Both the position numbers and the translations under genes were made by a program. Source: an uncultured Candidatus Saccharibacteria bacterium (lineage in GTDB: Bacteria > Patescibacteriota > Minisyncoccia > Minisyncoccales > GWA2-38-27). From it: a stretch of DNA of 64,000 nt. How positions within the stretch are numbered: the stretch's first letter is position 1; each line of letters opens with the position of its first letter. A model generated the notes under the pieces. That model saw only the letters and a list, made by a program, of their open reading frames with translations. It had not been told where the DNA came from and made no database searches. The stretch is from contig CAZOVC010000002.1 in assembly GCA_964583485.1 (NCBI GenBank), forward strand, positions 2,959-66,958, in the 5' to 3' direction. This document shows positions 1,111-54,446 of the stretch, piece by piece.

Positions 1111-1135
1111 TTGCGTTAAGCTTAGCTTAACGCAA
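1111..1135. repeat. Perfect 25-nt palindrome ttgcgttaagct-t-agcttaacgcaa, with a partial direct copy at 1098-1110; member of a 3-copy palindrome family
   Basis: The identical 25-mer recurs at 2716-2740. A related palindrome, aagtaagct-t-agcttactt, is at 2093-2111. All three are intergenic, at the ends of minus-strand genes. Confidence 0.5.
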
Positions 1136-2764: not shown

Positions 2765-3631
2765 TCAATAATCGTCCCGATGCTCATTAAATTTTTGAAG
2801 TCTTTGATTGAAAATAGCTTTCTCTTTGTTTAAAACATCAAATTTCTTAAGGGATTGATAAACATCTTCCAAATGAGCTTCAGTAAACTCATGTAAACCT
2901 TCGCTGTCATCTATCAGTTCCATAATAAACTTGTAATGAAATTTTTGGGCTTCTCGTAGGATTTCTATACCAACAAAGGGAGAAGTAGCAACCAAACGTT
3001 TCTTTATTATCCTCATTACTTCACAAAAAGCTGCCACCATCTCATCAGCACAGAAATAAATATCATACATTCTATAATTAGTCCATCCCTCAATCTCGCG
3101 AAATGCTTTTTGAACCTCTTTAAGAGAAAGAGGTCTATTCTTATCAGTATTAAAATGAGGCATCTTTGGCAAGCGACTATGCGGCCTCGGCTTTCCTCCT
3201 AATGCGGTTTCATCAGCAAGAACACGAAGTATTTCTAAATCAGCCTTAAGAGGATTTCTATAAAGTGCATTTATTTGGGCCCGAGAAATAAGCGGAGGAG
3301 CAATAGCATAAGATTTAATCTCTTCTTTTACTGGCCTGGCAATACTTCTCATTTCATCCCAAACAATTGCCACTGCCACCATATGTTTGCATATAGGACT
3401 ATACGATGAAGATCTATCGGCGTAAGGACAATTACACTCCCTACTTATTCCTCCACTAGTAAATTTAAGATTAACAACATATCGCTTTGCGCCCCTTACT
3501 GCAGCTTTAACTTCTTTTTCGCCGCTTTTGATAATATTAACTCTCCCACTATCTACGTAATCTTCTCCTCGATACCAAACCTCCTCATTAGTTTTATTTA
3601 GCAATAATTCAGTTGCTGATCTCATTTGCAT
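2765..3631 (-). CDS. SWIM zinc-finger domain protein
   Basis: Motif CNCPYADRSSSYSPICKHMVAV fits the SWIM pattern CxCx(n)CxH. 288 aa. Confidence 0.55.
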   Translation of the reverse strand: MQMRSATELLLNKTNEEVWYRGEDYVDSGRVNIIKSGEKEVKAAVRGAKRYVVNLKFTSGGISRECNCPYADRSSSYSPICKHMVAVAIVWDEMRSIARPVKEEIKSYAIAPPLISRAQINALYRNPLKADLEILRVLADETALGGKPRPHSRLPKMPHFNTDKNRPLSLKEVQKAFREIEGWTNYRMYDIYFCADEMVAAFCEVMRIIKKRLVATSPFVGIEILREAQKFHYKFIMELIDDSEGLHEFTEAHLEDVYQSLKKFDVLNKEKAIFNQRLQKFNEHRDDY

Positions 3632-3802
3632 AATTTATTTTTCTTTTTTCATAATTTTAATCAATTCTTTGATTTTTTATTTCAATTATCGAGGTTCGAT
3701 CTCGATAGAAATATAATCTCATATATTCAATTTAACTCTTTTCTAACTTAAATTCAAGGACGACGACGGGGGCCTTGAGGCCAAGCCGCCTAAGGGAGAC
3801 CC

Positions 3803-3852
3803 AAAGTGTGCAAAACCGAGTTTTGCACACTCATTACGACGAATATGATTGT
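3803..3852. other. Copy 1 of a conserved 50-nt element carrying a perfect 10-bp inverted repeat (gtgtgcaaaa-ccgag-ttttgcacac); candidate operator or small RNA module
   Basis: 49 of 50 nt identical to 50778-50827. Intergenic, between the GT2-GtrA gene and the SWIM gene. Confidence 0.45.
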
Positions 3853-3951
3853 GAGGATTTTGGGGACGGTATCCCCTGCGAAGCATTGCGATAATAAAAA
3901 AGCCCAAATATAATTTTGTTCATAAATGGGCTTTAAAGAATAGAATCGAAT

Positions 3952-5364
3952 TTATTTCTTAAAAACAATGAATTTATAACCCAGAAAGTTCCAAACCATA
4001 GAAAACATAGTAGCAATTAACGCTCCAACAGTTGCCCAAATCTTGGGAGAAATTCCAGCTTGAGGACCAATTAAATTTACCGCCAAAGAAGCAATTCCCA
4101 CATTTATTACCAGCCCAATCGCGCTTATTATTAAAAATTGCAAAAACTCTGTTCCAGTTTTTTCAACCTTTATCTTTTTAAAGGTCCAGAATTTATTCCA
4201 AAGAAAACTGTTAATTATGGCTATTAAGAAAGAAACTCCTTTAAAAACTGGATAAAAAAGACCAGCAGTAATTCCGGTTAAAAGAATCTGTAAATTAAGC
4301 GCTCCCCAATCAATCAAAGTATTGGAAATTCCTACGGTTGCAAATTTTCCAGCCTGAAAAATAACTGGAACCTTTTTTCCTAAAACATAGGTAATATAAA
4401 GAGAAATTGCAGCTGCAATTGGAACAATAACTGCTAAAAATAAACCCCCACACCAAAAATTTGGTAGTGGGGGTAAACCCAGATAAAGTCCCCAGGTCCA
4501 AAAATCAAGTTCTAAGGTTTTTAAAATTGTAAAAGCCAGCCAGGCAACCATCTCGCCGATAATTAAAGCAGAAATCAAATCAGTTTTTCTCCAAGTAGCT
4601 GATTCTGCTTTTTCTTCTTTTTTCTCATACTTTCCCAAAATCAGATTCTGTTTGATTTTGAATGTCTCAAAAAGCATTTTAACCATACTTTTAAATTTTA
4701 CTTTGCTTTGCGCGTCATTTACCCAGGTTATGGGAATTTCTTTAATTTTATAGCCCAGTTTTTTTGCTATAACCAGAACTTCTGGATCAAATCCAAAATG
4801 GCGAATAAAGATTCTGGAAAAAATATCTTGAGCCGCTTTTTCTTTAAAACCTTTGAAACCGCATTGAGTATCTTTAATTTCCCAAAGGCCAATAATTATT
4901 TTTCTAACTAATTTAAAACCTCCTCCCAAAATTACTTTTCTTATCCAGGGTTGAGGCACAGACAGAACCGCTCCCTTAATATCTCTTGAGCCAATAACAA
5001 TATCATATCCTGCTTCAAATTCCGGCCACATTTTCTCAACCTGATCAATTGAAGTTGAATTATCAGCATCAGTAAAAATTCTATATTCTCCCTTGGCTTC
5101 AAATATCCCCTGTTTTACTCCAAAGCCCTTGCCCAGACGTTCTTTGAACTCAAGGACTTTTAAGTTTTCTATCTCCGGCATCAAATTCTTTACCTTCTCA
5201 ACCGTTCTGTCGCTTGAACCATCGCTTACTACAATAATTTCAGAAGTATATATTTGCTTTTTCAAATAATTATTGATTTCTCGCAAAGTTTTGGGCAATC
5301 TTTTTTCTTCATTATAAGCCGGAATAATGACTGAAAGATAGGTTTTTTGATTTTGATTATCCAT
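3952..5364 (-). CDS. Polyprenyl-phosphate glycosyltransferase: GT2 catalytic domain fused to a C-terminal GtrA-like membrane domain
   Basis: N-terminus IIPAYNEE...VVSDGSSD is a GT2 signature. C-terminus has several TM helices ending NSFLWNKFWTFKK, a GtrA motif. Carries an in-frame palindromic insert at 4441-4477. Confidence 0.7.
   Translation of the reverse strand: MDNQNQKTYLSVIIPAYNEEKRLPKTLREINNYLKKQIYTSEIIVVSDGSSDRTVEKVKNLMPEIENLKVLEFKERLGKGFGVKQGIFEAKGEYRIFTDADNSTSIDQVEKMWPEFEAGYDIVIGSRDIKGAVLSVPQPWIRKVILGGGFKLVRKIIIGLWEIKDTQCGFKGFKEKAAQDIFSRIFIRHFGFDPEVLVIAKKLGYKIKEIPITWVNDAQSKVKFKSMVKMLFETFKIKQNLILGKYEKKEEKAESATWRKTDLISALIIGEMVAWLAFTILKTLELDFWTWGLYLGLPPLPNFWCGGLFLAVIVPIAAAISLYITYVLGKKVPVIFQAGKFATVGISNTLIDWGALNLQILLTGITAGLFYPVFKGVSFLIAIINSFLWNKFWTFKKIKVEKTGTEFLQFLIISAIGLVINVGIASLAVNLIGPQAGISPKIWATVGALIATMFSMVWNFLGYKFIVFKK
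4441..4477. repeat. Copy A of a bulged palindromic element (taaacccccacaccaaaaatttggtagtgggggtaaa), inserted in frame inside the GT2-GtrA coding sequence; encodes LPPLPNFWCGGL
   Basis: Nearly identical to 14700-14736 and degenerately to 42911-42946. All copies keep the same single-base bulge asymmetry (CACACC versus GGTAGTG). Confidence 0.6.
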
Positions 5365-9035: not shown

Positions 9036-10270
9036 ATTTTAAGAAAATCTACTATTTTTTTAGCCTGTTTTTTTGATATATTTATATGAGTAGGAAGATT
9101 TAATGTTTGCTTTGACAATTTTTCTGCCTTTGGGCAGGTGCCAAGCTTATAACCTACTCTATCTAAATTTGTATCATCTGGAGCAATCGGGCTTGTGTAC
9201 CAATCCCCTATTAAGATATTTTTTCTCCACATCTTTTTAATTATTTTATGAGCTTTGCTATGTTTTATTGTAAATCTTAAAAATATAGAATTATCTTTTG
9301 GAGGAAGTTTAAAAGAAGTATTTTTTAGATTTTCAAAAAAGAAATCAGCAATTTCCTGTCTGTGTTTATTAAACCTCTCTAATTTCTTAAATTGATTTAA
9401 GGCAAGAATTGCCAAGGCATTAGGCATTCTTTTTGGAAAATATGACGGCTTTCTGCCCTGTTTTTCCTTCCAATGGACTGCTTTAGACATAAAATGAAGC
9501 CATTGGAATATAACTAAGACATACTTCCCATTTATTCTATAACTGGGCAGAATAAAGCTCATAAATATGGGATGTAATAACTGTTGTTTAATCCAAAAAT
9601 ATGATGGATAACTAAACTTGTCCTGAGCTTGCTGAAGTTTTTCAGCAAGCGAAGGGTCATTAGTAACAACCATTCCTCCATATACAGAAGAAATTACCTT
9701 ATCTCTGGAAAAACTAAAGAAAGCAGCTTTACCAAAACTACCTACTTTTTGATTGTAGTATTCAGCTCCTAACGCATGAGCGCAGTCCTCAATTAATATT
9801 AAATTATTCTCTTGGGCAGTTTTTCTAATTTCATTCATATTAGCAGGAATTCCAAATGTATGTTGAACCATTATAGCTCTACTTTTATCACTTACCTTAT
9901 TTCTTAAATCTTCTATATCAATATTAAAAGTATTTTCATCGCAATCAACATAAACTGGCTTTAAGCCATTCCATAAAATAGGATTTACAGCAGCATTGCA
10001 AGTAAATGCCTGAAGCAAAACTTCGCTTCCAGGTTCTAAATTAAGTCCTCTCAAAATAGCCATTAAGCAAGCTCTCCCGCTATTAAAAGCAAAAGCATAT
10101 TTTACACCTAAATATTTTTTAAACTCGTTTTCCAATTCTTCAATTGCCTCGCCGCGTCTCCACTTCCATAGACAAAAAACCAATTTCAAAGCTAGCCAAA
10201 TATCATCTTTTTCTACATTTGGCGATAATGATATTGTAATTGGTTTAAGGTATTGACAAATTTTAAGCAT
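9026..10270 (-). CDS. DegT/DnrJ/EryC1/StrS-family PLP-dependent sugar aminotransferase
   Basis: FNSGRACLMA...SFSRDKVISS (PLP lysine), then YGGMVVTND. Confidence 0.7.
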   Translation of the reverse strand: MLKICQYLKPITISLSPNVEKDDIWLALKLVFCLWKWRRGEAIEELENEFKKYLGVKYAFAFNSGRACLMAILRGLNLEPGSEVLLQAFTCNAAVNPILWNGLKPVYVDCDENTFNIDIEDLRNKVSDKSRAIMVQHTFGIPANMNEIRKTAQENNLILIEDCAHALGAEYYNQKVGSFGKAAFFSFSRDKVISSVYGGMVVTNDPSLAEKLQQAQDKFSYPSYFWIKQQLLHPIFMSFILPSYRINGKYVLVIFQWLHFMSKAVHWKEKQGRKPSYFPKRMPNALAILALNQFKKLERFNKHRQEIADFFFENLKNTSFKLPPKDNSIFLRFTIKHSKAHKIIKKMWRKNILIGDWYTSPIAPDDTNLDRVGYKLGTCPKAEKLSKQTLNLPTHINISKKQAKKIVDFLKIWK

Positions 10271-10354
10271 TATGATATAATGTAGTTAGTAGAAAATAAG
10301 TTAATTGTAAAGTTATAAATTTGTTCACTAACAATTTGGAAAGGATAGATAACC

Positions 10355-14138: not shown

Positions 14139-15629
14139 TTACTTTGGACGCATTGTAGGAAATAGAATTACTTCTTTTAACGAGTGCGAATCAGTTAATA
14201 AAGCTGTTAATCTGTCGATTCCCATTCCAAAGCCAGCAGCCGGAGGCATTCCATACTCCAGGGCCTCAATAAAGTCCTTGTCCATTCTCTGAGCTTGTTC
14301 AAAACCTTTTTTAAATATCTTTTCCTGCTCTTTAAATCTTTGCTCTTGAACAAGAGGATTATTTAATTCAGAAAAAGCTTTGACTAACTCAATTCCCATA
14401 GCAATAAATTGAAAGCTCGCTGATTTAGAAGGATTTTTATCTAATGGCTTTGCCAAAGGAAAAGTTTCTGCAGGATAATGGATAACAAATGTTGGCTGTT
14501 CTATTTTAGGCCTAATAACTTTTTTAAATATCTCATCAGTTATTTCAAACTTTCCTCCTTTGCTCTCTATGCCTAACTTTTTTGCTTCTTTTCTAAGAGC
14601 GTTCTCATTTATTTCCTCTAAATCAATTTTAGTGTGTTTTCTAAATATCTCATTAAATTCAACCCTTTTATACGGAGCCTTAAAGTCTAATCTCTTTCCT
14701 TTACCCCCACTACCAAAATTTTGGTGTGGGGGTTTATATTCAATAATTGTTTTATTAAATAAGTTTTTAATCACAAAAGCAAGCATTTTTTCTGTAAACT
14801 TCATCAGCTCTTTATAATCAGCATAAGCCCAATAAAACTCAAGCATTGTAAAATCAGGGTTATGAGCCCTATCTATTCCTTCATTTCTAAAGCATCTTCC
14901 TATTTCATATATTTTTTCAAACCCGCCTACTAAAAGACGTTTTAAATATAGTTCTAAAGATATTCTTAGATATAAGTCAATGTCTAAAGCATTTAAATGA
15001 GTTTTAAACGGCTTTGCCGTAGCTCCTCCATAAATTGGCTGTAAAATCGGCGTTTCTACTTCTAAAAACCCTTCTTTATCTAAAAATGACCTGATTTCTT
15101 TAATAATTCTTGAACGTAATTCAAACCTTTCTTTAACTTCAGGATTAAAAATCAAATCCAAGTATCTTTTGCGATAACGCTCTTCAACATCTTTTAATCC
15201 ATGCCATTTTTCAGGCAAAGGCAAAAGCGATTTGACCAGAATCTTGTAATCAGCAGCTTCTAAGGTTTTCTCTCCTTTTTTGGTTTTGAATAAAATCCCT
15301 CTTATTTCAATAAAATCGCCGATGTCAAAATTGTCCAGAAAAAACTGAAAACTCTTTTCTCCCAACCGGTCTTTTTTGAATAAAGTTTGGATTTGGGCTG
15401 CGCCGTCTTTAATGTGGGAGAAAACCAATCCGCCGTGCTGTCTCAAAGATATTATCCTGCCTGCTAAAATTATTTCTTTTTTCAGCCGAGCCAGTTTGCT
15501 AAAATCCTCAAGAGCTTGTTGGCAAGTATGGGTTCTTTTTGTCTGGCCTGGATAAGCCGAAAACCCGACATTCTCAATTGCCTTAAGTTTCTTTATTCTA
15601 TTTTTCCGAATTTCATCAATAGTCGCCAT
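14139..15629 (-). CDS. lysS: Lysyl-tRNA synthetase, class II; carries an in-frame palindromic insert
   Basis: CFRNEGIDRAHNPDFTMLEFYWAYADY motif 2 region and a GFGMGIDRL motif 3. Segment KPPHQNFGSGGKG is encoded by the palindromic element at 14700-14736. Confidence 0.88.
   Translation of the reverse strand: MATIDEIRKNRIKKLKAIENVGFSAYPGQTKRTHTCQQALEDFSKLARLKKEIILAGRIISLRQHGGLVFSHIKDGAAQIQTLFKKDRLGEKSFQFFLDNFDIGDFIEIRGILFKTKKGEKTLEAADYKILVKSLLPLPEKWHGLKDVEERYRKRYLDLIFNPEVKERFELRSRIIKEIRSFLDKEGFLEVETPILQPIYGGATAKPFKTHLNALDIDLYLRISLELYLKRLLVGGFEKIYEIGRCFRNEGIDRAHNPDFTMLEFYWAYADYKELMKFTEKMLAFVIKNLFNKTIIEYKPPHQNFGSGGKGKRLDFKAPYKRVEFNEIFRKHTKIDLEEINENALRKEAKKLGIESKGGKFEITDEIFKKVIRPKIEQPTFVIHYPAETFPLAKPLDKNPSKSASFQFIAMGIELVKAFSELNNPLVQEQRFKEQEKIFKKGFEQAQRMDKDFIEALEYGMPPAAGFGMGIDRLTALLTDSHSLKEVILFPTMRPK
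14700..14736. repeat. Copy B of the bulged palindromic element (tttacccccactaccaaaattttggtgtgggggttta), in frame inside lysS
   Basis: Its reverse complement matches copy A at 36 of 37 positions. Also explains the antisense ORF 14560..14817 containing PLPPLPKFWCGG. Confidence 0.6.
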
Positions 15630-15738: not shown

Positions 15739-15770
15739 GCCAAAAATTGTCCAATCGGACAATTTTTGGC
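15739..15770. promoter_or_regulatory. Palindrome gccaaaaattgtcc-aatc-ggacaatttttggc, immediately upstream of the cassette 1 promoter
   Basis: A paralogous palindrome, gccaaaaatccgacgatcgtcggatttttggc, sits upstream of cassette 2 at about 17264-17297. Confidence 0.45.
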
Positions 15771-15775
15771 ACACC

Positions 15776-15804
15776 TTGACAGGTTTGAATTAATATGATA
15801 TGCT
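15776..15804 (+). promoter_or_regulatory. Sigma-70-type promoter: TTGACA, 17-nt spacer, extended -10 TG-a-TATGCT (cassette 1)
   Basis: The promoter core is almost identical to the cassette 2 promoter at 17378-17406. Confidence 0.5.
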
Positions 15805-15896
15805 GTAAATAGTAAACCTCGTTAAAAAATGAGATTTTCTAACGGGGTAAAAAGAATAAATTCTTTGTTTAAAATTTTATTTGGAAAGGAAATAAA

Positions 15897-16292: not shown

Positions 16293-16351
16293 CACAAAAG
16301 CACAAAAAAAGACCCCTTATGAGTTTTACCCTCAAAAAAGGGTCGCAACAA

Positions 16352-17082: not shown

Positions 17083-17377
17083 TATTTAATTCTACCAAAT
17101 AATATATTTTAGGTCAAAACCCTGTAGAGAAAATTTGATTTGCCCTGCAAGAAAAGATTTTCTAAAAGAAAATCTTTATCAAATTTCTTCTACGGGATCA
17201 AAAGAAAAAAAACAAGGAACTAATTATAAACTATTTTTTCATAAACCATCTTTATCTTTGTATGCCAAAAATCCGACGATCGTCGGATTTTTGGCACCGT
17301 CTCTTAAATTTCTTAATTTTTTGACTCTTAATCTCGACTCCTAATATAGACGGCCGTCTGTTTTGAGAGTCAAACTA

Positions 17378-17406
17378 TTGACAGGTTTGAACTAATATGA
17401 TATACT
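17378..17406 (+). promoter_or_regulatory. Sigma-70-type promoter: TTGACA, 17-nt spacer, TATACT (cassette 2)
   Basis: Paralogous to 15776-15804. Preceded by nested palindromes at 17264-17375. Confidence 0.5.
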
Positions 17407-17461
17407 GTAAGTAGTAAAAAAGAACTAAAAATCTTTATTCATAATTTGGAAGGGAATTGAA

Positions 17462-18988: not shown

Positions 18989-20077
18989 TCACTTTTTACT
19001 TGATTTTGAAATATTTAAAAGAATTCCTATTCCAATCAGTTCTGCGACTATATGCGAGCCCCCATAACTAATAAACGGCAAAGGAATACCGGTTAATGGT
19101 AAAATGCCAATCATTGCCCCCATGTTAATAAAGGCCTGAATGCAAATCCAGCAGCTTATGCCTATTGCCAGAAGTTGAGAAAATTTATTCTGAGACATTT
19201 TGGCAATTCTAAATCCTTTCCAAAGCAAAAGCAAAAAAAGAGAAATTAGAACAATAGAACCGACAAATCCAGTTTCTTCGGCAAATATGGCAAAGATTGA
19301 ATCTGACATTGTTTGAGGAATCCAGCCAAACTTTTGCGCAGACATACCAAGACCTAACCCAAAAATTCCTCCAGAACCAATAGTAATCAGAATTTGTTTT
19401 ATTTGATAACCCATTCCCATCGGATCAATTCCTGGATTTAAAAAAACTAAAATCCTTTTCATTCTATATGGAGCGATTTTTATTAATCCAAATATTCCTC
19501 CCGCGCATATTAAAATTGCTAAAGCAGTATGCCAAAAAGGAAAACCCGACGAGAAATACATTAAAATGCCAACCGAAATAATTACTGCTAAAGTACTAAC
19601 ATCTGATTGCAGGGTCAAAAGAAAAGCAAGAACTCCTAATATTATTAAAAAAGGAATCAAAGTAAAAGCCTTCTTATTTTTCAGAAAACTAGTTAACAAG
19701 GCGGAAAGATAAATAATAAAAGTAAGTTTTAAAAATTCAGACGGCTGAAAAGTAAAAAATCCCAAATTCATCCAACGAGGCGCTCCTCCAGCAATAATAC
19801 CTATTTTGGGGATAAAAACTAAAGCCATAAAGGCCAGATTTATTAAAATAAATATCAGGGCATATTTTTTTAAAAATGACAAGCTTATTTTAAACGCAAT
19901 AAAACCCAATGCGAGACCGACAGATAATCGAATAATCTGATGCAAAAGATAATAAGTTGTTTTGCCAAACTTTTCTTGGGAAAAATTTGCTGATACGTTA
20001 GCTAAAACTAAAATTCCTATGATTAATAAAATACATGTTACGATAGCTAAAAAATAATCAAACTTATGCTTTTTCAT
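18989..20077 (-). CDS. ftsW: SEDS-family peptidoglycan polymerase FtsW/RodA
   Basis: Ten TM helices. C-terminal LPLTGIPLPFISYGGS motif. Confidence 0.85.
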   Translation of the reverse strand: MKKHKFDYFLAIVTCILLIIGILVLANVSANFSQEKFGKTTYYLLHQIIRLSVGLALGFIAFKISLSFLKKYALIFILINLAFMALVFIPKIGIIAGGAPRWMNLGFFTFQPSEFLKLTFIIYLSALLTSFLKNKKAFTLIPFLIILGVLAFLLTLQSDVSTLAVIISVGILMYFSSGFPFWHTALAILICAGGIFGLIKIAPYRMKRILVFLNPGIDPMGMGYQIKQILITIGSGGIFGLGLGMSAQKFGWIPQTMSDSIFAIFAEETGFVGSIVLISLFLLLLWKGFRIAKMSQNKFSQLLAIGISCWICIQAFINMGAMIGILPLTGIPLPFISYGGSHIVAELIGIGILLNISKSSKK

Positions 20078-20083
20078 AAATAG

Positions 20084-20131
20084 AATACGAGAACTGTTCT
20101 CGTAGAGCTCTACGAGAACAGTTCTCGTATT
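20084..20131. promoter_or_regulatory. 48-nt perfect nested palindrome (aatacgagaactgttctcgtagag|ctctacgagaacagttctcgtatt) spanning the murD stop codon and the murD-ftsW junction
   Basis: Read from the sequence. Half of it encodes the murD C-terminus IRELFS. Confidence 0.5.
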
Positions 20132-21363
20132 GCTTTAACAAATTGTTCTCCTCTGTCAAATTCGTTCTCAAATAAATTAAAACTTGCTGCTCCGGGAGAA
20201 AGCAAAATAATATCTCCTTTTTGAGCCAAGCTCCTTGCCCTTTTAACTGCTTCTTTCATAGACCTTGCAGAAAAAGCAGGGACCCGGGTCTCTGTCAGCT
20301 CCCTTTTCAATTTATCAGAAGCTGTTCCCGGCAATAAAATAAGATGTTCTACGTTCTTTTTTATCTCTTTAGCTAATTGTTTGTAGTTTAATTTCTTGTC
20401 TTGACCACCGGCAATAAGGATAATTCTTGAAGTGGAAAACCTCTTTATTGCCAATATAGCTGATTGGGGCGTGGTAGCGGTAGTATCGTTAATATACTTT
20501 ACTTCATTTTTTATCGCAACCAGTTCTTGCCTATTGGGAACACCTCTAAAATTAGAAAGAACTTTTTTAATGTTCTTTTTGGGAATTTTGAAAATTTTAG
20601 CAACAGAAACAGCGGCGGAAATGTTGGAATCCCTGAAAAAATAAACTTTTGACAGCGCTTCTTTGGCCAGATTTCTTGTTTCAGGATTATTATAATTTAG
20701 AATTAAAATATCGTTTTTCTTCTGATATTTAAAAATCGACTTCTTTGCTTCAATATAGTCATTAAAGTTTTTATATCTATTTAAATGGTCTGGAAAAAGA
20801 GTGGTGATAACGGCTATATGAGGACTTTTCTTTAAATCCTCTAACTCAAAACTGGAAAGTTCCAAGACAACTTTTGTTTTTTTATTTACCCTGCCTAAAA
20901 CCTCCAGGGGCGAGATTCCGATGTTTCCGGCCAAAACAGTATTTGGAAACTTAGTTTCCAAAAATAAATAAATAAGAGTGGCGGTGGTTGATTTGCCTTT
21001 AGTGCCGGTAATTCCAATAATTGACGCCGGGCATAAATCAAAAAATATATCTATGTCTGTTTTTACAGAAATATTATTATCTTTGGCGATTTTTAAATAT
21101 TTAGATTCTCTAAAAACACCAGGGTTCTTGATAATTAAATCAGCATTAATAAAATCTTCTTTTCTGTGTTTACCTAATACAAATTTAACCCGGTTAAGTT
21201 TTTTAAGTTTTTTAATTGACTCTTTCAGTTCCTTTCTGGTTTTCAAATCAGTAACTAAAACTTTAGCTCCTTGTTTATGGAAAAACTTAGCAGCGCCAAC
21301 TCCCCCGCCGAGCAAACCCAACCCCATAATCACAATCTTTTTGTTTTTAAATAATTTTTTCAT
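20110..21363 (-). CDS. murD: UDP-N-acetylmuramoylalanine--D-glutamate ligase
   Basis: IVIMGLGLLGGGVGAAKFF Rossmann N-terminus and a GITGTKGKSTT P-loop. Confidence 0.88.
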   Translation of the reverse strand: MKKLFKNKKIVIMGLGLLGGGVGAAKFFHKQGAKVLVTDLKTRKELKESIKKLKKLNRVKFVLGKHRKEDFINADLIIKNPGVFRESKYLKIAKDNNISVKTDIDIFFDLCPASIIGITGTKGKSTTATLIYLFLETKFPNTVLAGNIGISPLEVLGRVNKKTKVVLELSSFELEDLKKSPHIAVITTLFPDHLNRYKNFNDYIEAKKSIFKYQKKNDILILNYNNPETRNLAKEALSKVYFFRDSNISAAVSVAKIFKIPKKNIKKVLSNFRGVPNRQELVAIKNEVKYINDTTATTPQSAILAIKRFSTSRIILIAGGQDKKLNYKQLAKEIKKNVEHLILLPGTASDKLKRELTETRVPAFSARSMKEAVKRARSLAQKGDIILLSPGAASFNLFENEFDRGEQFVKAIRELFS

Positions 21364-24036: not shown

Positions 24037-24075
24037 TGTCTTATTATAGTATTTTAATAAAAACCATGCAAACTA

Positions 24076-24104
24076 TTGACAAATTTAAACAATGGGTGTA
24101 TAAT
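24076..24104 (+). promoter_or_regulatory. Consensus sigma-70 promoter: TTGACA, 17-nt spacer, TATAAT
   Basis: Perfect hexamers, about 65 nt upstream of the 24171 start. Confidence 0.55.
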
Positions 24105-24170
24105 GTAGGTAGTTATTTCCACCATAATTAAGAAACTGGAAAGAAAAACTCTTTTTTAGGAGACATAACA

Positions 24171-30123: not shown

Positions 30124-30630
30124 ATGAAAAAATACTCACAAATTTCAAACAAAGAAAAGAGTAATTTATTGCAAGAATTCTGCGAAGCAATTTCTGTTTT
30201 AAATAACCCAAAAGAAATAATGGACTTTATAACTGACCTATTAACAAAACAAGAAACTATAATGGTAGCTAAAAGAATTAAAATTGCAAAAATGCTAATT
30301 ATTGGAAAAGATTATCAAGAAATTCGGAATTCCTTAAAAACAAGCCCTGGTACAATATCTAAAATAAATCAATGGTTATTAGAATCAGGAGAGGGTTTTA
30401 GAATAATTGCGCAAAGAACCAAAAGAAAAGAATCTAAAAAGATAAAATCGGAATATAGTGAATTAAAAAAACTCAAAAGACGATACCCTATTATGTTTTG
30501 GCCAGAACTTTTAATCAAAGATATAATAAAAACAATGAACGCAAAGCAAAAAGATAGAATTAAAAAATCTATAAAAAATTTAGATCGTAAATCTGAAATA
30601 TACAAACAAATAGATAAAGCTTTAAAATAA
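30124..30630 (+). CDS. Trp-repressor-like DNA-binding protein (YerC/YecD family)
   Basis: LLTKQETIMVAKRIKIAKMLIIGKDYQEIRNSLKTSPGTISKINQWL resembles the YerC/TrpR HTH. Confidence 0.55.
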   Translation: MKKYSQISNKEKSNLLQEFCEAISVLNNPKEIMDFITDLLTKQETIMVAKRIKIAKMLIIGKDYQEIRNSLKTSPGTISKINQWLLESGEGFRIIAQRTKRKESKKIKSEYSELKKLKRRYPIMFWPELLIKDIIKTMNAKQKDRIKKSIKNLDRKSEIYKQIDKALK

Positions 30631-30695: not shown

Positions 30696-30775
30696 TACAT
30701 TTTCTTATAATTGTAAAAAAATGTGGAAAGATGAAACATAGAAAAAATAAGAGATTATATAAAAAAATAAGAAAT

Positions 30776-30895
30776 ATGGTAAAATTAAAGTATGAAAATT
30801 AGTATTAAAAATACTATGGTAAAATTAAAGTATGAAAATTAGTATTAAAAATACTATGGTAAAATTAAAGTATGAAAATTAGTATTAAAAATACT
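30776..30895. repeat. Three perfect tandem copies of a 40-bp unit (atggtaaaattaaagtatgaaaattagtattaaaaatact), the last one overlapping the start codon of the 30872 gene
   Basis: Units start at 30776, 30816 and 30856. Each carries the ATG and first 8 codons (MKISIKNT) of the downstream ORF. Confidence 0.9.
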
Positions 30896-31150
30896 GGAGA
30901 AAATACAGTAAACTTAATGAGAAAGATTGGTTATCTTTTTCATAAAGAAAATCAATTTGTTAGACCTTTGGAAAGAAGCGGTTATCCAAGATTTCATTTA
31001 TATATCAAAGAAAACAAAGAAGAAATAATTTTTAACTTACATCTTGACCAAAAAAAACCACTATATAAAACAGCTCATGATCACGCAGCGGAATATGAAG
31101 GAGAAGTCGTTGAAGCCGAAGCCCAAAGAATAAAACAAATATTAAGATGA
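30872..31150 (+). CDS. Hypothetical small protein
   Basis: 92-aa ORF. Overlaps the next gene by 4 nt (ATGA). Confidence 0.45.
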   Translation: MKISIKNTGENTVNLMRKIGYLFHKENQFVRPLERSGYPRFHLYIKENKEEIIFNLHLDQKKPLYKTAHDHAAEYEGEVVEAEAQRIKQILR

Positions 31151-33361: not shown

Positions 33362-33433
33362 CCTTGCTTATTGGAGGGAGATGGAATCGAACCATCGACC
33401 TGTCGTCTAAGACGACCTGCTCTCCCAACTGAG
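33362..33433 (-). tRNA. tRNA gene, 72 nt; anticodon loop reads UCUUAGA, so anticodon UUA (candidate ochre-suppressor tRNA); identity needs confirmation
   Basis: The minus strand reads GGGGGGA-TA-GCTC-AGTTGGGA-GAGC-A-GGTCG-TCTTAGA-CGACA-GGTC-GATGG-TTCGATT-CCATC-TCCCTCC-A. The acceptor stem pairs 7/7 with one G-U, the D stem is GCTC/GAGC, and the T arm is GATGG/CCATC with a TTCGATT loop. Position 33 is C and 27:43 is G:A, both unusual, so the anticodon register is uncertain. Confidence 0.7.
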
Positions 33434-33468
33434 CTATCCCCCCGATTTAAGGTACTACTACTATTATT

Positions 33469-50174: not shown

Positions 50175-50744
50175 TCAATCCTTTGGGCCAATCTTTCTTA
50201 AAATTTCAAGAACCGCATCAAAAAATATCCTTATTATGACTTCCCACCATTTTTTCTCTGAATAAAGAGGTTTGCCATTCTGAAAATATCTTTTCTGTAA
50301 TTCAAAACCGATATTATTCAAATCAATCATCAATCCCATATAATCTCGGAATTCAGCATACTCAATTGTCGCTATGTCTATATCCGTATATCTAGAACTA
50401 TAATTGATTTGATTATATTTGCCATGCCAAATCTCTCCAATTCTTAAGAATAATTGATGTGCGTTTCGACCTATTTCCTGTAATGATTTAGCAAATAATA
50501 ATGGTGGCTTGCCTCTTTTGAGTTTTTTTAAATTCTCATTCGATAATTCTATCAACCTTTCCGCAAACAAAGTTATTTCATTAAAAATTCCATCTAAATC
50601 CATTGGGATATTTTCTCTTCTTGAATGCCTTTTTCTCCTACGGAGAATCTTTTTAGTATATTTTACCAATTTTATGAAATCTTCGATTATCTCTTTATTG
50701 GACTGATTACTATAATCTGTTGTTCCTGTAAATATATTTTGCAT
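50175..50744 (-). CDS. Hypothetical protein
   Basis: 189-aa ORF. Confidence 0.4.
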   Translation of the reverse strand: MQNIFTGTTDYSNQSNKEIIEDFIKLVKYTKKILRRRKRHSRRENIPMDLDGIFNEITLFAERLIELSNENLKKLKRGKPPLLFAKSLQEIGRNAHQLFLRIGEIWHGKYNQINYSSRYTDIDIATIEYAEFRDYMGLMIDLNNIGFELQKRYFQNGKPLYSEKKWWEVIIRIFFDAVLEILRKIGPKD

Positions 50745-50777
50745 ATTTGTATTAAATTAATATTGGATTAGTAAATG

Positions 50778-50827
50778 AAAGTGTGCAAAACCGAGTTTTG
50801 CACACTCATTACGACGAATATAATTGT
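50778..50827. other. Copy 2 of the conserved 50-nt element with the 10-bp perfect inverted repeat; here it is followed 65 nt downstream by a plus-strand rho-independent terminator (50892-50923), so it may be the 5' part of a plus-strand sRNA of about 150 nt
   Basis: 49 of 50 nt identical to 3803-3852. Terminator is gccaagtcgcc-taaa-ggcgactcggc plus T5. Confidence 0.45.
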
Positions 50828-51018
50828 AGAAAGAGGACGCTTCTCTCTTAAACAGGGTTTTAGGCTTTTTTGACGGCGACTGGGCGACAAAGCCAAGTCG
50901 CCTAAAGGCGACTCGGCTTTTTACTAATTTTACCTGAGTCTTGTGAACGGCTGGAAATCCTAGGAACTTGGACGCGAACGTCAAAATGCTCCGCAAACAA
51001 TCGTCTTAATATAATTGA

Positions 51019-51611: not shown

Positions 51612-51682
51612 ATTTTTATTATATCAAAAAAGCGTCGAAATGGCGATTCTTTGTGGCCGATCGACCCCGAACAAAGTTCGAT

Positions 51683-51712
51683 GTCCTGGACGGGTACGGG
51701 TTTAGGACGCCA
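51683..51712. repeat. Direct repeat aaagttcgatgtcctggacgggtacggg (copy 1), recurring at 53822-53851; together with aggcctctcggtcg (51728 and 53749) it brackets the high-GC island
   Basis: 28 of 30 nt identical between the two copies. Both lie in GC-rich non-coding DNA. Confidence 0.45.
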
Positions 51713-51922
51713 TAGGCCTCTCGGTCGGTCTCGATACTGCGCTGACTCGTGCTGTCTGTCCTGAACAAAATCCGAACCTTTTTTCAAGAAAATCCCGACG
51801 CTGATTTTTGATAATTTTCGCTCGGGCGGGCAAAAAGGAAGGGGGTTGGGGGGAAGGAATTTTTGCCCGCCCTCGCTTTTCCGTTGCCGCCGAATTTCGT
51901 GCCAGCGAAGCTGGCGCGCCGC

Positions 51923-52159
51923 CTAAATATCAAAATAACTGTCAATTTCTTCTCTCACTTCTTTAATCAGTTTTTTCTTTTCATCTTTCAATTCAAATGC
52001 TTCTTTTACCAATTTTGTAATTTTATCAATAGAATTTTTGTCTAAAATTGGTATTTTAAAATCAAGAAGACGATTTGAAATTGTTGGTATTGTTGATTGA
52101 ATTACAGTGTACTTTTCGCTTTGGCATCCGGCGACTTCTTTTATTGTTGGACTAAAAGG
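51923..52159 (-). pseudogene. Start-less C-terminal gene fragment (about 78 codons, ...IKEVAGCQSEKYTVIQSTIPTISNRLLDFKIPILDKNSIDKITKLVKEAFELKDEKKKLIKEVREEIDSYFDI*); probable remnant of a gene truncated by the GC-rich insertion
   Basis: Hand-translated from the minus strand. Host-like AT-rich codon usage. The open frame runs into the 52154-52241 hairpin with no start codon. Confidence 0.3.
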
Positions 52160-52241
52160 GGTCAGGTACCTTTTTTACCTTTTTTAGGTCTTCCCCTAGG
52201 ATTTAATGTTGAGTTAAAATAAAAGGTACCTGACCCCTTTT
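52154..52241. other. Large perfect hairpin: 21-bp arms aaaaggggtcaggtacctttt / aaaaggtacctgacccctttt around a 46-nt loop
   Basis: Read from the sequence. Lies at the junction between host-like DNA and the GC-rich segment. Confidence 0.5.
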
Positions 52242-52598
52242 ATTTTACACATCGTTGAAGTTGAAGTAGGGCGCGTTCGAGAAATCGCCATCAGCGTCAG
52301 GTTAATTGCCTCCACTCATCCATGTCACCAGACCGCGAAGTTTACTGCCTTAAGGATTATATCTTTTTGGTCTTGTATTTTATTCGGCAGCATCCCGCTA
52401 AAAGCGGGAACCTGCGCTAAGCAGAGGCAAGCAGTATCTCCTCAGCACAACACGCTCTTAGAAACCGTAGTCGCTAAGACTCTGGTTGCTTTTCTCCTAA
52501 AGAGAGAGTTCGGCGACAGCAATCCGTAAACTACTATGCATTAGCCTAAGCTCATTTATAAGTATATTGAATTCTAAAAAAGAAGCAAGTTTTTGAGA

Positions 52599-52636
52599 TA
52601 AAAAAAGAGGGTTATCCGTGTTAGTATGGATAACCC
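52599..52636 (-). terminator. Rho-independent terminator on the minus strand (gggttatcc/ggataaccc then tcttttttta)
   Basis: Downstream of the 52709..53578 gene and its octamer repeats. Confidence 0.55.
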
Positions 52637-52652
52637 TTAAAATTTGTCGCGA

Positions 52653-52716
52653 ATTCAAGGATCAAGATACAAGAAGTCAAAAGACTCAAGAACTCAAGAC
52701 TTCGAGATTCAAGACT
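52653..52716. repeat. Eight tandem degenerate octamers (minus strand: agtcttga atctcgaa gtcttgag ttcttgag tcttttga cttcttgt atcttgat ccttgaat) starting at the stop codon of the 52709..53578 gene
   Basis: 8-nt periodicity with a conserved tcttga core. Lies in the 3'UTR before the terminator. Confidence 0.45.
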
Positions 52717-53578: not shown

Positions 53579-53969
53579 CGCCTCCTTTCTACCCTATAAT
53601 GTAGGGCTCTAAAGTAAACCTTATTTTCAAAGAACTTCACTATGTTATAATTATAGCAAACTGTCAAGAAAAGTCAAGGGTTTAGTAAAAAATTGGGATT
53701 TGAAATTCGATTAATAAAAAACTCGTAATTCGTTATTTCGTGTTTTTTTGAGGCCTCTCGGTCGCAAGAACCGAGCACCAGCCTGCTCTGGTGCTGCGAT
53801 TCGAACTGTCTCAAATTCGAATAAAGTTCGATGTCCTAGACGGGTATGGGGACATTTTTCTCGAACTTTTTCCAAAATATGAGGCGGATCGGTCTCTCGA
53901 ACCGCGCTCAAGGTAGCTGCGGGAACTGGAAAACGTTAGAAATTGTTTAATAGCAGATTCGCTGGCATT

Positions 53970-54446
53970 CTAAGAATGTTTACTTAGAATAAACCCTTTA
54001 AGCCATTCCCCATCAGCAACCATAAGCTCTAAACTGCCAGCCGGCTTATGGATTGTTTCTTTCCGATAAACCTTAATCTGTTCAGGAGAAGACGTCCAAA
54101 TGCTAACCTTAGAAAGGCCAAATAATCGAGCCGATACTCCCCTAACATTTTCAACATTCTGAACCTTATCAAAGGAAATTGAATTAGAGCGTTTAATTAT
54201 TACCCCAGAATTTATCGTTATTTTGTCATTCTCTACAACAAAGGTTAAAAATTTAAAATAAAGGAGAAAATACACAAACACTGGTAAACCAATAAAGATT
54301 AGCAATGAAATAAAAACACCATACCAAACACCCTTATTAAAGACTAAAAATGGCAGAGATATTGTGAAAAACAAAAGAATGATTTTCGTTAAAACATACC
54401 ACTTAACTACGGATGGCAATTTAGTAGGAGTATTTTGATTTATCAT
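53970..54446 (-). CDS. Membrane protein with bacterial PH domain (YdbS/DUF304-like)
   Basis: Two TM helices followed by a PH-like region. Confidence 0.45.
   Translation of the reverse strand: MINQNTPTKLPSVVKWYVLTKIILLFFTISLPFLVFNKGVWYGVFISLLIFIGLPVFVYFLLYFKFLTFVVENDKITINSGVIIKRSNSISFDKVQNVENVRGVSARLFGLSKVSIWTSSPEQIKVYRKETIHKPAGSLELMVADGEWLKGFILSKHS

Follow-up and report, generated by a model that had tools for sequence, protein, structure and literature searches.

Two near-identical intergenic hairpin repeats in a Patescibacteria contig are probably REP-like elements of the RAYT kind

We examined a 50-nt repeat unit (R) that occurs twice in the window, by which we mean the whole 64-kb stretch of DNA analyzed here, and it appears probable that both copies are REP-like, BIME-like selfish hairpin repeats of the RAYT kind. 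REPs are repetitive extragenic palindromes, and in the REP/RAYT and IS200/IS605 systems a Y1 transposase recognizes, cuts and rejoins a single-stranded hairpin. We connect the window copies to a RAYT because near-identical hairpins flank transposases in other Patescibacteria. The REP reading is favored by a hairpin family that brackets Y1 genes, by copies that lie after stop codons, by covariation in the stem, by a third copy of the unit and by the lack of conservation at orthologous sites. The near-identity of the two R copies is, on balance, better attributed to recent copying or conversion than to selection on a regulatory site. The bacterium has low-GC DNA (~34%) and occurs in more than 10 JGI and Logan assemblies, and homologs of the window proteins carry Patescibacteria lineage names.

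The two copies lie 47 kb apart and are identical at 49 of 50 positions, as the initial annotation had reported; the sole mismatch is a G at position 3847 and an A at position 50822. The pattern GTGTGCAAAA-N5-TTTTGCACAC has exactly two matches in the window, and still two when up to 3 mismatches are allowed, against a chance expectation of 0.02 per window; none of 100 shuffled sequences reached two matches. The inverted repeat, originally described as a perfect 10-bp palindrome, is indeed perfect but proved to be longer, with a 12-bp stem and a 3-nt loop (AGTGTGCAAAAC-CGA-GTTTTGCACACT, 27 nt). When folded as single-stranded DNA the hairpin has a predicted energy of -12.3 kcal/mol (z of about -5), and folding indicates a stable structure for either strand, whether RNA or single-stranded DNA. 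The hairpin has no directly adjoining T-run, the next letters being CATTACG on the plus strand and TTCATTT or TTGGGTC on the minus strand. The scan did not call it an intrinsic terminator. A search of the whole window with Rfam 15 at the gathering threshold returned a single tRNA and no family at either R copy, a search at E<=10 around both copies returned nothing meaningful, and an Rfam E-value scan of a GC-rich patch beside copy 2 found nothing. Three scans of viral contigs for the R element gave no match. The window also contains an odd tRNA with the anticodon UUA, though TAA is the commonest stop codon there. The coordinates of R and of the features around it are collected in Table 1.

Table 1. 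Positions in the window of the repeat unit R, its hairpin, block M and nearby signal-like sequences
Feature	Position	Strand	Basis or remark
Repeat unit R, copy 1 (AAAG + hairpin + 21-nt tail)	3803..3852	+	49/50 identical to copy 2
REP-type hairpin, copy 1 (loop CGA)	3805..3831		Pattern scan and folding
Repeat unit R, copy 2	50778..50827	+	49/50 identical to copy 1
REP-type hairpin, copy 2	50780..50806		Pattern scan and folding
Block M, copy 1 (decayed version of the copy-2 terminator hairpin region)	3759..3800	+	2 nt upstream of R
Block M, copy 2	50872..50912	+	44 nt downstream of R; contains GGCGACT twice
Promoter-like TTTGCA-16-TATGAT in copy 1	3822..3849	+	Consensus match only
Promoter-like TTTGCA-16-TATAAT in copy 2	50797..50824	+	10/12 consensus positions; consensus match only
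Intrinsic-terminator-like hairpin and T-run	50892..50923	+	Stem 50896-50913, tail CGGCTTTTTA

Both copies are intergenic and each lies upstream of a minus-strand gene, which agrees with the first description of the element. From copy 1 it is 172 nt to the start of the gene at 2765..3631, which encodes a SWIM zinc-finger protein and whose operon leads to grpE-dnaK-dnaJ; these last three genes all lie to the left of that copy. For copy 2 the distance is 34 nt, to the start of 50175..50744, a gene whose 189-aa product has no Pfam match; the minus-strand operon downstream of this copy consists of the genes for the 189-aa protein, a 187-aa protein and an ECF-sigma factor.

The window hairpin belongs to a sequence family that is tied to Y1 transposase genes. 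We searched public metagenome and genome contigs with the pattern TGTGCAAAA-N5-TTTTGCACA and found it in at least 120 metagenome stretches and 79 genome stretches, where by our own arithmetic chance alone would give roughly 9-20 matches in the 596-Gb genome set. Many of these matches are unrelated hairpins or members of a Planctomycete/Sedimentisphaerales REP family that has the same stem tagged with GTAGGG, and a coherent subset lies in Patescibacteria-type DNA. With the Planctomycete-type family set aside, 92 of 148 pattern sites among the matches listed are intergenic. At five independent Patescibacteria-type metagenome or MAG loci, the same stem brackets IS200-like Y1 genes of the RAYT/TnpA_REP type (L094, on the same contig as L038; L025; L041; L228; and L229, the same locus being present in L230). 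All five have a three-hairpin layout, with one hairpin at about -40, one 3 to 13 nt after the stop codon and one in frame at about codon 58, and the bracketed proteins are Y1_Tnp proteins of ~220 aa. The L094 transposase has 227 aa, the HUH motif NHFH and a Pfam match to Y1_Tnp (PF01797) at 1.8e-10; its flanking hairpins lie 42 nt before the start and 3 nt after the stop codon in opposite orientations, and the third is in frame at about codon 58. The downstream hairpin of this gene (TGTGCAAAACCAAGTTTTGCACA) is identical to the core of the window hairpin at 22 of 23 positions, the one difference being a loop base. At a further locus (L176), the palindrome within the gene and the one adjoining it have both changed to another sequence that they share; the two change together, and thus hairpin and gene co-vary.

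The transposase family represented by the L094 protein is large, with 5137 proteins at E<=1e-20, and named members come from Minisyncoccia, Sungbacteria, Nomurabacteria, Parcubacteria, Zambryskibacteria and Curtissbacteria. Among the 120 listed of these 5137 proteins, the internal position is occupied by VQNx[VIL]LH or by related motifs, VKHxVFN and VQSRTLH among them; self-complementary DNA at this motif was confirmed in the loci that we fetched and not in the 120 listed proteins. The internal motif expected of the window organism's own RAYT, VQNRVLH, is absent from the 120 listed of 5137 matches. Against the REP reading, tblastn and hmmsearch with RAYT proteins found no Y1 transposase gene in the 64-kb window, and none is tied to the organism. 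We also considered that the R copies might be remnants of a transposase gene. This idea was rejected: the same searches gave nothing at the copies, and the peptide in common, VQNRVLH, is a mere translation of the palindrome.

The initial annotation had proposed a covariation analysis across related genomes, and compensatory stem changes are indeed present among 26 members of the family. At pair 10/18, 21 of these hairpins have AU and 5 have UA; at pair 12/16, 16 have UA and 10 have CG; neither pair is ever unpaired. Because the 26 aligned members were mostly found through the stem pattern itself, only some columns are informative: the outer pairs, pair 10/18, and pair 12/16, whose positions the search pattern left free as part of N5. 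The foot of the family hairpin is TGTG...CACA, in which GTG/CAC never varies and 25 of 26 members have T3/A25, giving the family signature TGTG-CAAAAY-NNN-RTTTTG-CACA. A GTAG or GTGG guide tag is absent from the foot of the window hairpin.

A search for further copies had also been suggested, and it located the hairpin in contigs with quite different gene contexts. The identical 23-mer, its loop CCGAG included, lies 20 nt after the stop codon of clpP in L072 (a locus found also in L127, and from the window's own sample series), 1 nt after that of a P-type ATPase gene in L110, and 5 nt after that of a zinc-finger protein gene in L130, a contig that shares its ENA metagenome (ORJL01) with the L094 REPtron. 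L072 and L097, a contig of the window's sample series that is described below, may come from relatives rather than from the window organism itself. At eight loci with homologs of the SWIM protein (57-72% amino-acid identity) or the 189-aa protein (64-66%), the hairpin is absent even when up to 4 mismatches are allowed; synteny around these homologs is not kept in the contigs compared.

Strain variation points in the same direction. Four strain contigs each show 1-2 SNPs per 50 nt in copy 1, at R positions 4, 28 and 45, where the surroundings differ by 0.35-0.7%, and copy 2 is invariant across five strain contigs (L001-L005). Two of the copy-1 SNPs strike one outer stem pair, each from the opposite side; at this pair, which is G-C in the window, L072 and L110 both have A-T, a double change. 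At the G/A site, copy 1 has the copy-2 base in some strains, L014 and L015 reading TATAAT. Assemblies of the window organism break within R. The strain SNPs and the absence from orthologous sites argue against an old constrained operator or leader and fit a repeat that comes and goes.

The R copies of the window consist of more than the hairpin, as they also have a common 21-nt tail (CATTACGACGAATATRATTGT); other family members are hairpin only. The sequence around the copies had been described as divergent, which is mostly true, but the flanks are partly related. GAGGA recurs 0-5 nt after both R copies, and a block of ~42 nt (M) is homologous between the two loci, local alignment of its copies giving a score of 28, where shuffles averaged 18 and reached at most 27. 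The M motif GCCAAGYCGCCTAARGG is found in the window only beside the two R copies. The order of the parts is permuted: copy 1 reads M-R, copy 2 reads R-44 nt-M, and the terminator hairpin at the latter is made by M. This second M has GGCGACT twice and can thus pair in two alternative ways. It is possible that the permutation reflects a former tandem arrangement or recombination between copies. A further copy of the longer unit begins L097, a 31.5-kb contig, which reads M-R-GAGGAT and then continues into unrelated sequence, a third genomic context; its R has a 9-nt partial duplication of one hairpin arm. Therefore, together with the window copies, there are at least three loci with a mosaic unit of 50-107 nt. 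Finally, in contig L010 the left flank of copy 2 leads into R, and R into 12 nt from the right flank of copy 1; such a junction would point to a tandem duplication or circle of the 47 kb, or else to an assembly chimera.

We propose that the hairpin forms on single-stranded DNA, for example on the lagging-strand template, where a cognate Y1 transposase would bind, cut and rejoin it by analogy with the REP/RAYT and IS200/IS605 systems. Hairpin copies would be seeded into intergenic DNA, often right after stop codons. In the window bacterium the hairpin sits in a longer mosaic unit of hairpin, 21-nt tail and, usually, an adjoining block M, and the two window copies and the L097 copy may all be recent copies of this unit, which would explain an identity of 49/50 within otherwise unrelated intergenic DNA. 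Both the action of a RAYT on these particular R copies and the spread of the mosaic unit are steps that we infer. Any effect of R on the neighboring genes, through a candidate plus-strand promoter or through a hairpin in or near the 5' region of 50175..50744, would be secondary. The initial annotation held that such identity in unrelated intergenic regions implies function or recent mobility; the mobility, or repeat, side of this statement is upheld by the Y1-tied family and the third copy in L097, and the specific functions found no support in our comparisons. The varied positions and orientations of a generic repeat, and a lack of conservation in relatives, had been named as grounds for abandoning a functional element, and both were largely observed.

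Several observations sit less comfortably with the REP reading. Classical REPs number tens to hundreds per genome, and the copies visible here amount to 2 per 64 kb plus 1-2 in contigs of the same samples. A REPIN is an inverted REP doublet with a short spacer and has been proposed as the mobile unit; the window copies, however, are single hairpins, and reverse-strand alignment of the copy regions yields only the self-palindrome. The tail and M are not part of the family elsewhere, and a transposase that recognizes only the hairpin explains neither the copying of the longer unit nor the permutation of M. In addition, the tail holds a good -10 hexamer suitably spaced from a -35-like hexamer, and an orphan terminator follows copy 2.

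Comparison with described systems shows both likenesses and differences. The REPtron layout, in-frame REPs and the 'double-foot' REPs of TnpA_REP subclass 2.4 were described by Quentin et al. 2018 (PMC6006769). The hairpin family resembles REPtrons in consisting of a short intergenic palindromic hairpin, often right after stop codons, with lineage-specific sequence variants; in the single-copy Y1 (HUH) gene that lies between hairpins of opposite orientation and has an extra in-frame copy; and in the 'double foot', with a tag at one end of the hairpin and its complement at the other. It differs from REP/RAYT systems in its tag (TGTG/CACA, compared to the canonical GT[AG]G/C[TC]AC), in its low apparent copy number of about one per 10-30 kb at the loci seen, and, for the window copies, in being singlets with an additional conserved 21-nt tail. 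Like the BIMEs of E. coli, the unit is a mosaic of a REP hairpin and short motifs (the tail and M) whose order varies by locus. BIMEs, however, are inverted REP pairs with defined linkers that bind IHF or gyrase, whereas R occurs as single hairpins at three loci. IS200/IS605 elements and PATEs likewise have hairpins that are recognized as single-stranded DNA by a transposase of the Y1_Tnp family, but they need distinct left and right ends and R is one hairpin without a partner end; no tnpA/Y1 or TnpB gene was found near either R copy. In the literature that we searched, a REP/RAYT-type system in Patescibacteria seems to be undescribed, with the possible exception of one incidental paper.

Other explanations for the two copies were weighed against this evidence. 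R may be a portable plus-strand promoter, possibly with the palindrome acting as an operator over the -35 hexamer, that makes two unrelated small RNAs, although we consider this unlikely. Sigma-70-like hexamers with a 16-nt spacer are present within both copies (Table 1), the identity between the copies stops 3 nt past the -10, close to where a transcript would start, and GAGGA follows both. The plus-strand terminator reported after copy 2 is present as a sequence feature, its T-run being better on the plus strand than on the minus strand (only TTTGT), and there is no plus-strand gene to use it. The copy-2 RNA, itself doubtful, would be ~90 nt long, from ~50831 to the terminator at 50923, and this length disagrees with the plus-strand small RNA of about 150 nt first suggested; an RNA of ~80 nt from copy 1, running from ~3856 to a hairpin at 3905-3935, is no less doubtful. 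At L094 and L025, moreover, the right arm of the upstream hairpin (TTGCAC) lies 17 nt before a -10-like hexamer, but this geometry is not kept at L228, L041 or L229, and we rejected the idea that the transposase loci in general have a -35 in the upstream hairpin. Furthermore, 2.4-2.9 promoter-like matches are expected per 800-900 nt of such AT-rich DNA, copy 1 varies between strains in positions that include the stem and the -10, and a regulon would not need 49/50 identity across the spacer; the putative RNAs are unlike each other, match nothing in Rfam and were not found in relatives. A hybrid of this idea with the REP reading would have the hairpin exapted as a portable control module, with the palindrome over a real plus-strand -35, gated by the RAYT or by another palindrome-binding protein, and with the 50-nt copies placing new small RNAs under the same control. 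If this were true, a minimal genome would be gaining a small regulon through a selfish repeat, but we regard it as quite unlikely. R as a cis-regulatory site of both minus-strand operons, either a duplex operator for a dimeric regulator or a 5'UTR hairpin, is improbable. This had been the alternative first offered, and it draws on the position of both copies upstream of minus-strand genes, copy 2 being very close to a start codon, on the perfect palindrome, and on a minus-strand promoter-like site (TTAAGA-17-TACAAT) that would start the copy-2 mRNA just before the hairpin. However, copy 1 is five times as far from its gene as copy 2, homologs of both genes lack the site in their upstream DNA, the same hairpin follows stop codons elsewhere, and copy 1 is polymorphic. 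The conservation of the loop along with the stem and the compensatory changes are hallmarks of a folded strand, not of duplex half-sites. The likeness to CIRCE/HrcA lies in a perfect inverted repeat with GCAC/GTGC upstream of an operon leading to grpE-dnaK-dnaJ, but direct comparison gave no match: CIRCE is TTAGCACTC-N9-GAGTGCTAA, so that the arms AGTGTGCAAAAC-N3-GTTTTGCACACT of R are effectively everted, and R lies 172 nt and several genes from grpE, occurs also after clpP and ATPase stop codons and is unconserved in relatives. An ECF-sigma promoter (GGAAC/CGTC), boxes of the LacI, CRP, Rex or NrdR type and the template and variable repeats of a DGR were set aside as well, their consensus sequences being unlike R by direct comparison.

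An old local duplication or recombination (of the R-X-M-R type) that left R behind as a passive relic, kept similar by gene conversion, with no transposase and no function, is rather unlikely. The permuted order of M and R would fit a former tandem or recombined arrangement, the copy-2 base seen at the copy-1 G/A site in some strains could be conversion, and contig L010 runs through R from the left flank of copy 2 into the right flank of copy 1. A private duplication nevertheless fails to explain why the hairpin and its loop are common to other contigs, other organisms and the repeats that flank transposases, and L097 places the unit in a third, unrelated context. That the copies are the attL and attR of a 47-kb integrated element is extremely improbable. 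They are direct repeats ~47 kb apart, and the L010 junction is what an excised circle or a tandem duplication would give. The interval between them, however, contains a cell-wall and division cluster (four Mur ligases, MurG, FtsW, a MraY-type transferase, FtsQ and glutamate racemase) and genes for SerRS, LysRS, another class II synthetase, UDG, GDH and transporters. We rejected att sites of an island because this interval is housekeeping DNA, no integrase was found near either R copy, and GC skew and GC content are continuous across both. A tmRNA or ncRNA gene split as an attB, or a prophage between the copies, was rejected likewise: ARAGORN found no tmRNA in the window, there is no integrase and the interval is housekeeping. 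It is very improbable that R codes for part of a small protein, either MKVCKTEFCTLITTN(I/M)IV... from the ATG at 50775 or the GTG at 3806. The same slight chance is given to the alternative frames, ...PKGDPKCAKPSFAHSLRRI* ending at the TGA/TAA of the G/A site or IRRNECAKLGFAHF on the minus strand. The G/A difference exchanges TGA and TAA in one frame and Met and Ile in another, the 9-nt insertion in L097 keeps the frame, and the same hairpin is translated in frame within transposase genes. On the other hand, near-identical nucleotides make every frame appear to 'make sense'. The frame in which the stop codons coincide has no start codon in any copy, the other ORFs are alike only across the repeat and then diverge, and no protein homolog was found; among the small ORFs in the three plus-strand frames and on the minus strand, none combines a start codon with conservation past the repeat.

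If the REP reading is correct, it places a REP/RAYT-type repeat system with a clear signature and a very large transposase family in Patescibacteria. R is then an ordinary kind of element in an under-studied lineage, and the result is mostly clarifying. Repeats of this kind break metagenome assemblies of such genomes, can create false or real recombinant junctions, and can be misread as operators or small-RNA genes. Very small genomes may also draw promoters, hairpins or recombination sites from them.

Other short palindromic repeats are present in the window, at 1111-1135 and again at 2716-2740, and another palindromic repeat is inserted in frame in two housekeeping genes, those for LysRS and a glycosyltransferase. 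The window genome clearly tolerates short palindromic elements.

In six Patescibacteria loci, genes for Y1 transposases resembling REP-associated (repetitive extragenic palindrome) enzymes contain, in frame at codon ~58, a further copy of the hairpin that flanks them. The peptide encoded by this internal copy reads VQNx[VIL]LH in most of the six loci and IKHRVFN in L176, the locus with a different palindrome, and internal and flanking hairpins vary in concert. The Y1 protein family as a whole (>5000 members) shows related motifs, such as VKHxVFN, at the same position. The stem of the R-type hairpin also recurs in Planctomycetota: metagenome-assembled genomes of Sedimentisphaerales/Planctomycetota contain a high-copy, frequently clustered repeat family in which this stem is accompanied by a canonical tag, GTAGGG-TGTGCAAAA-N5-TTTTGCACA-CGCGG. 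In L112, another of the public contigs compared with the window, one copy of this family lies 110 nt downstream of a weak Y1_Tnp-like ORF.

Positions of the sequence features, and contigs carrying the GTAGGG repeat family
Feature	Sequence	Position	Remarks
Y1 transposase (RAYT-like) gene, Patescibacteria	L094	7009-7692	
Y1 transposase (RAYT-like) gene, Patescibacteria	L025	1106-1771	
Y1 transposase (RAYT-like) gene, Patescibacteria	L041	2427-3086	
Y1 transposase (RAYT-like) gene, Patescibacteria	L228	6001-6765	
Y1 transposase (RAYT-like) gene, Patescibacteria	L229	8001-8678	
Y1 transposase (RAYT-like) gene, Patescibacteria	L176	190-873	
GTAGGG repeat family	L034, L047, L053, L056, L084-L086, L136, L145, L148, L154, L184, L193, L196, L197 and others		
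Perfect palindrome, 25 nt	window	1111-1135 and 2716-2740	two copies; TTGCGTTAAGCT-T-AGCTTAACGCAA
52-55-nt repeat with internal hairpin	window	4426-4477 (core 4445-4473) and 14700-14751 (core 14704-14732)	
Promoter-like 45-nt sequences	window	10246-10290, 15769-15813, 17371-17415 and 24069-24113	n=4
Perfect palindrome, 48 bp	window	20084-20131	two 24-nt arms, no spacer
Tandem repeat	window	30775-30895	three perfect copies of a 40-nt unit; patch of 27% GC
tRNA, anticodon UUA	window	33372-33443, minus strand	sole tRNA found in the window
GC-rich (~46%), ORF-poor stretches	window	51612-52700 and 53579-53970	adjoin R copy 2

The window contains a second palindrome, of 25 nt, both copies of which are located 14-25 nt past a minus-strand stop codon and are not followed by a T-run. 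One arm is partly duplicated (GAGCTTAACGCAAG) after the first of these copies, and a similar arm duplication is present at R in L097, the contig with a third instance of the R-containing unit, and at the REPs adjoining the transposase genes of L094 and L229. Flanks of the two window copies of R are joined in the metagenomic contig L010 (Ga0315546_1046269), whose first ~100 nt run from the left flank of copy 2 through R, here the G variant, into the right flank of copy 1 before the contig stops 12 nt after R. Such a junction is expected if the 47 kb between the copies were tandemly duplicated or excised as a circle, or from an assembly chimera.

A palindromic repeat within coding sequence was also found in the window itself. 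The 52-55-nt repeat, with its hairpin CCCCCAC-ACCAAAANTTTGGT-AGTGGGGG, lies in frame in a GT2/GtrA glycosyltransferase gene, where it encodes amino acids 296-313 (GLPPLPNFWCGGLFLAVI), and, turned the other way with respect to the coding strand, in the gene for LysRS, where it encodes amino acids 293-310 (KTIIEYKPPHQNFGSGGK). Alignment of LysRS to solved structures of the enzyme places an insertion of ~11 residues exactly at the repeat. The repeat resembles the palindromic elements inserted in frame in Rickettsia genes (RPEs).

Four 45-nt promoter-like sequences, strongly similar to one another, combine TTGACA-17-TATAAT/TATACT with a conserved GTAnnTAGT, and each lies upstream of one of the few plus-strand genes in the window. 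These genes are embedded in a minus-strand cell-wall cluster and encode small proteins of 98-132 aa, none with a Pfam match; two of the four are weak paralogues, and downstream of two of the genes lies a 47-nt terminator-like repeat that they have in common (at 16347 and 17823). The 48-bp palindrome extends across the space separating ftsW (18989..20077) from the end of a MurD-like gene (20110..21363). The tandem repeat, whose units were listed as 41-nt copies with a one-base overlap, directly follows a Trp-repressor-like gene (30124..30630) and extends into the start of an ORF (30872..31150). The GC-rich stretches include a long hairpin of ~95 nt (52149-52246) as well as two copies of a 33-nt repeat, at 51668 and at 53818, and matched no Rfam family, even at E<=1.

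Finally, the tRNA would decode the stop codon UAA, and its anticodon loop (UCUUAGA, C at position 33) is unusual. Yet 28 of the window's 51 ORFs with a length of 150 aa or more terminate in TAA, which is the most frequent stop there; the tRNA is suppressor-like within a standard-code genome.
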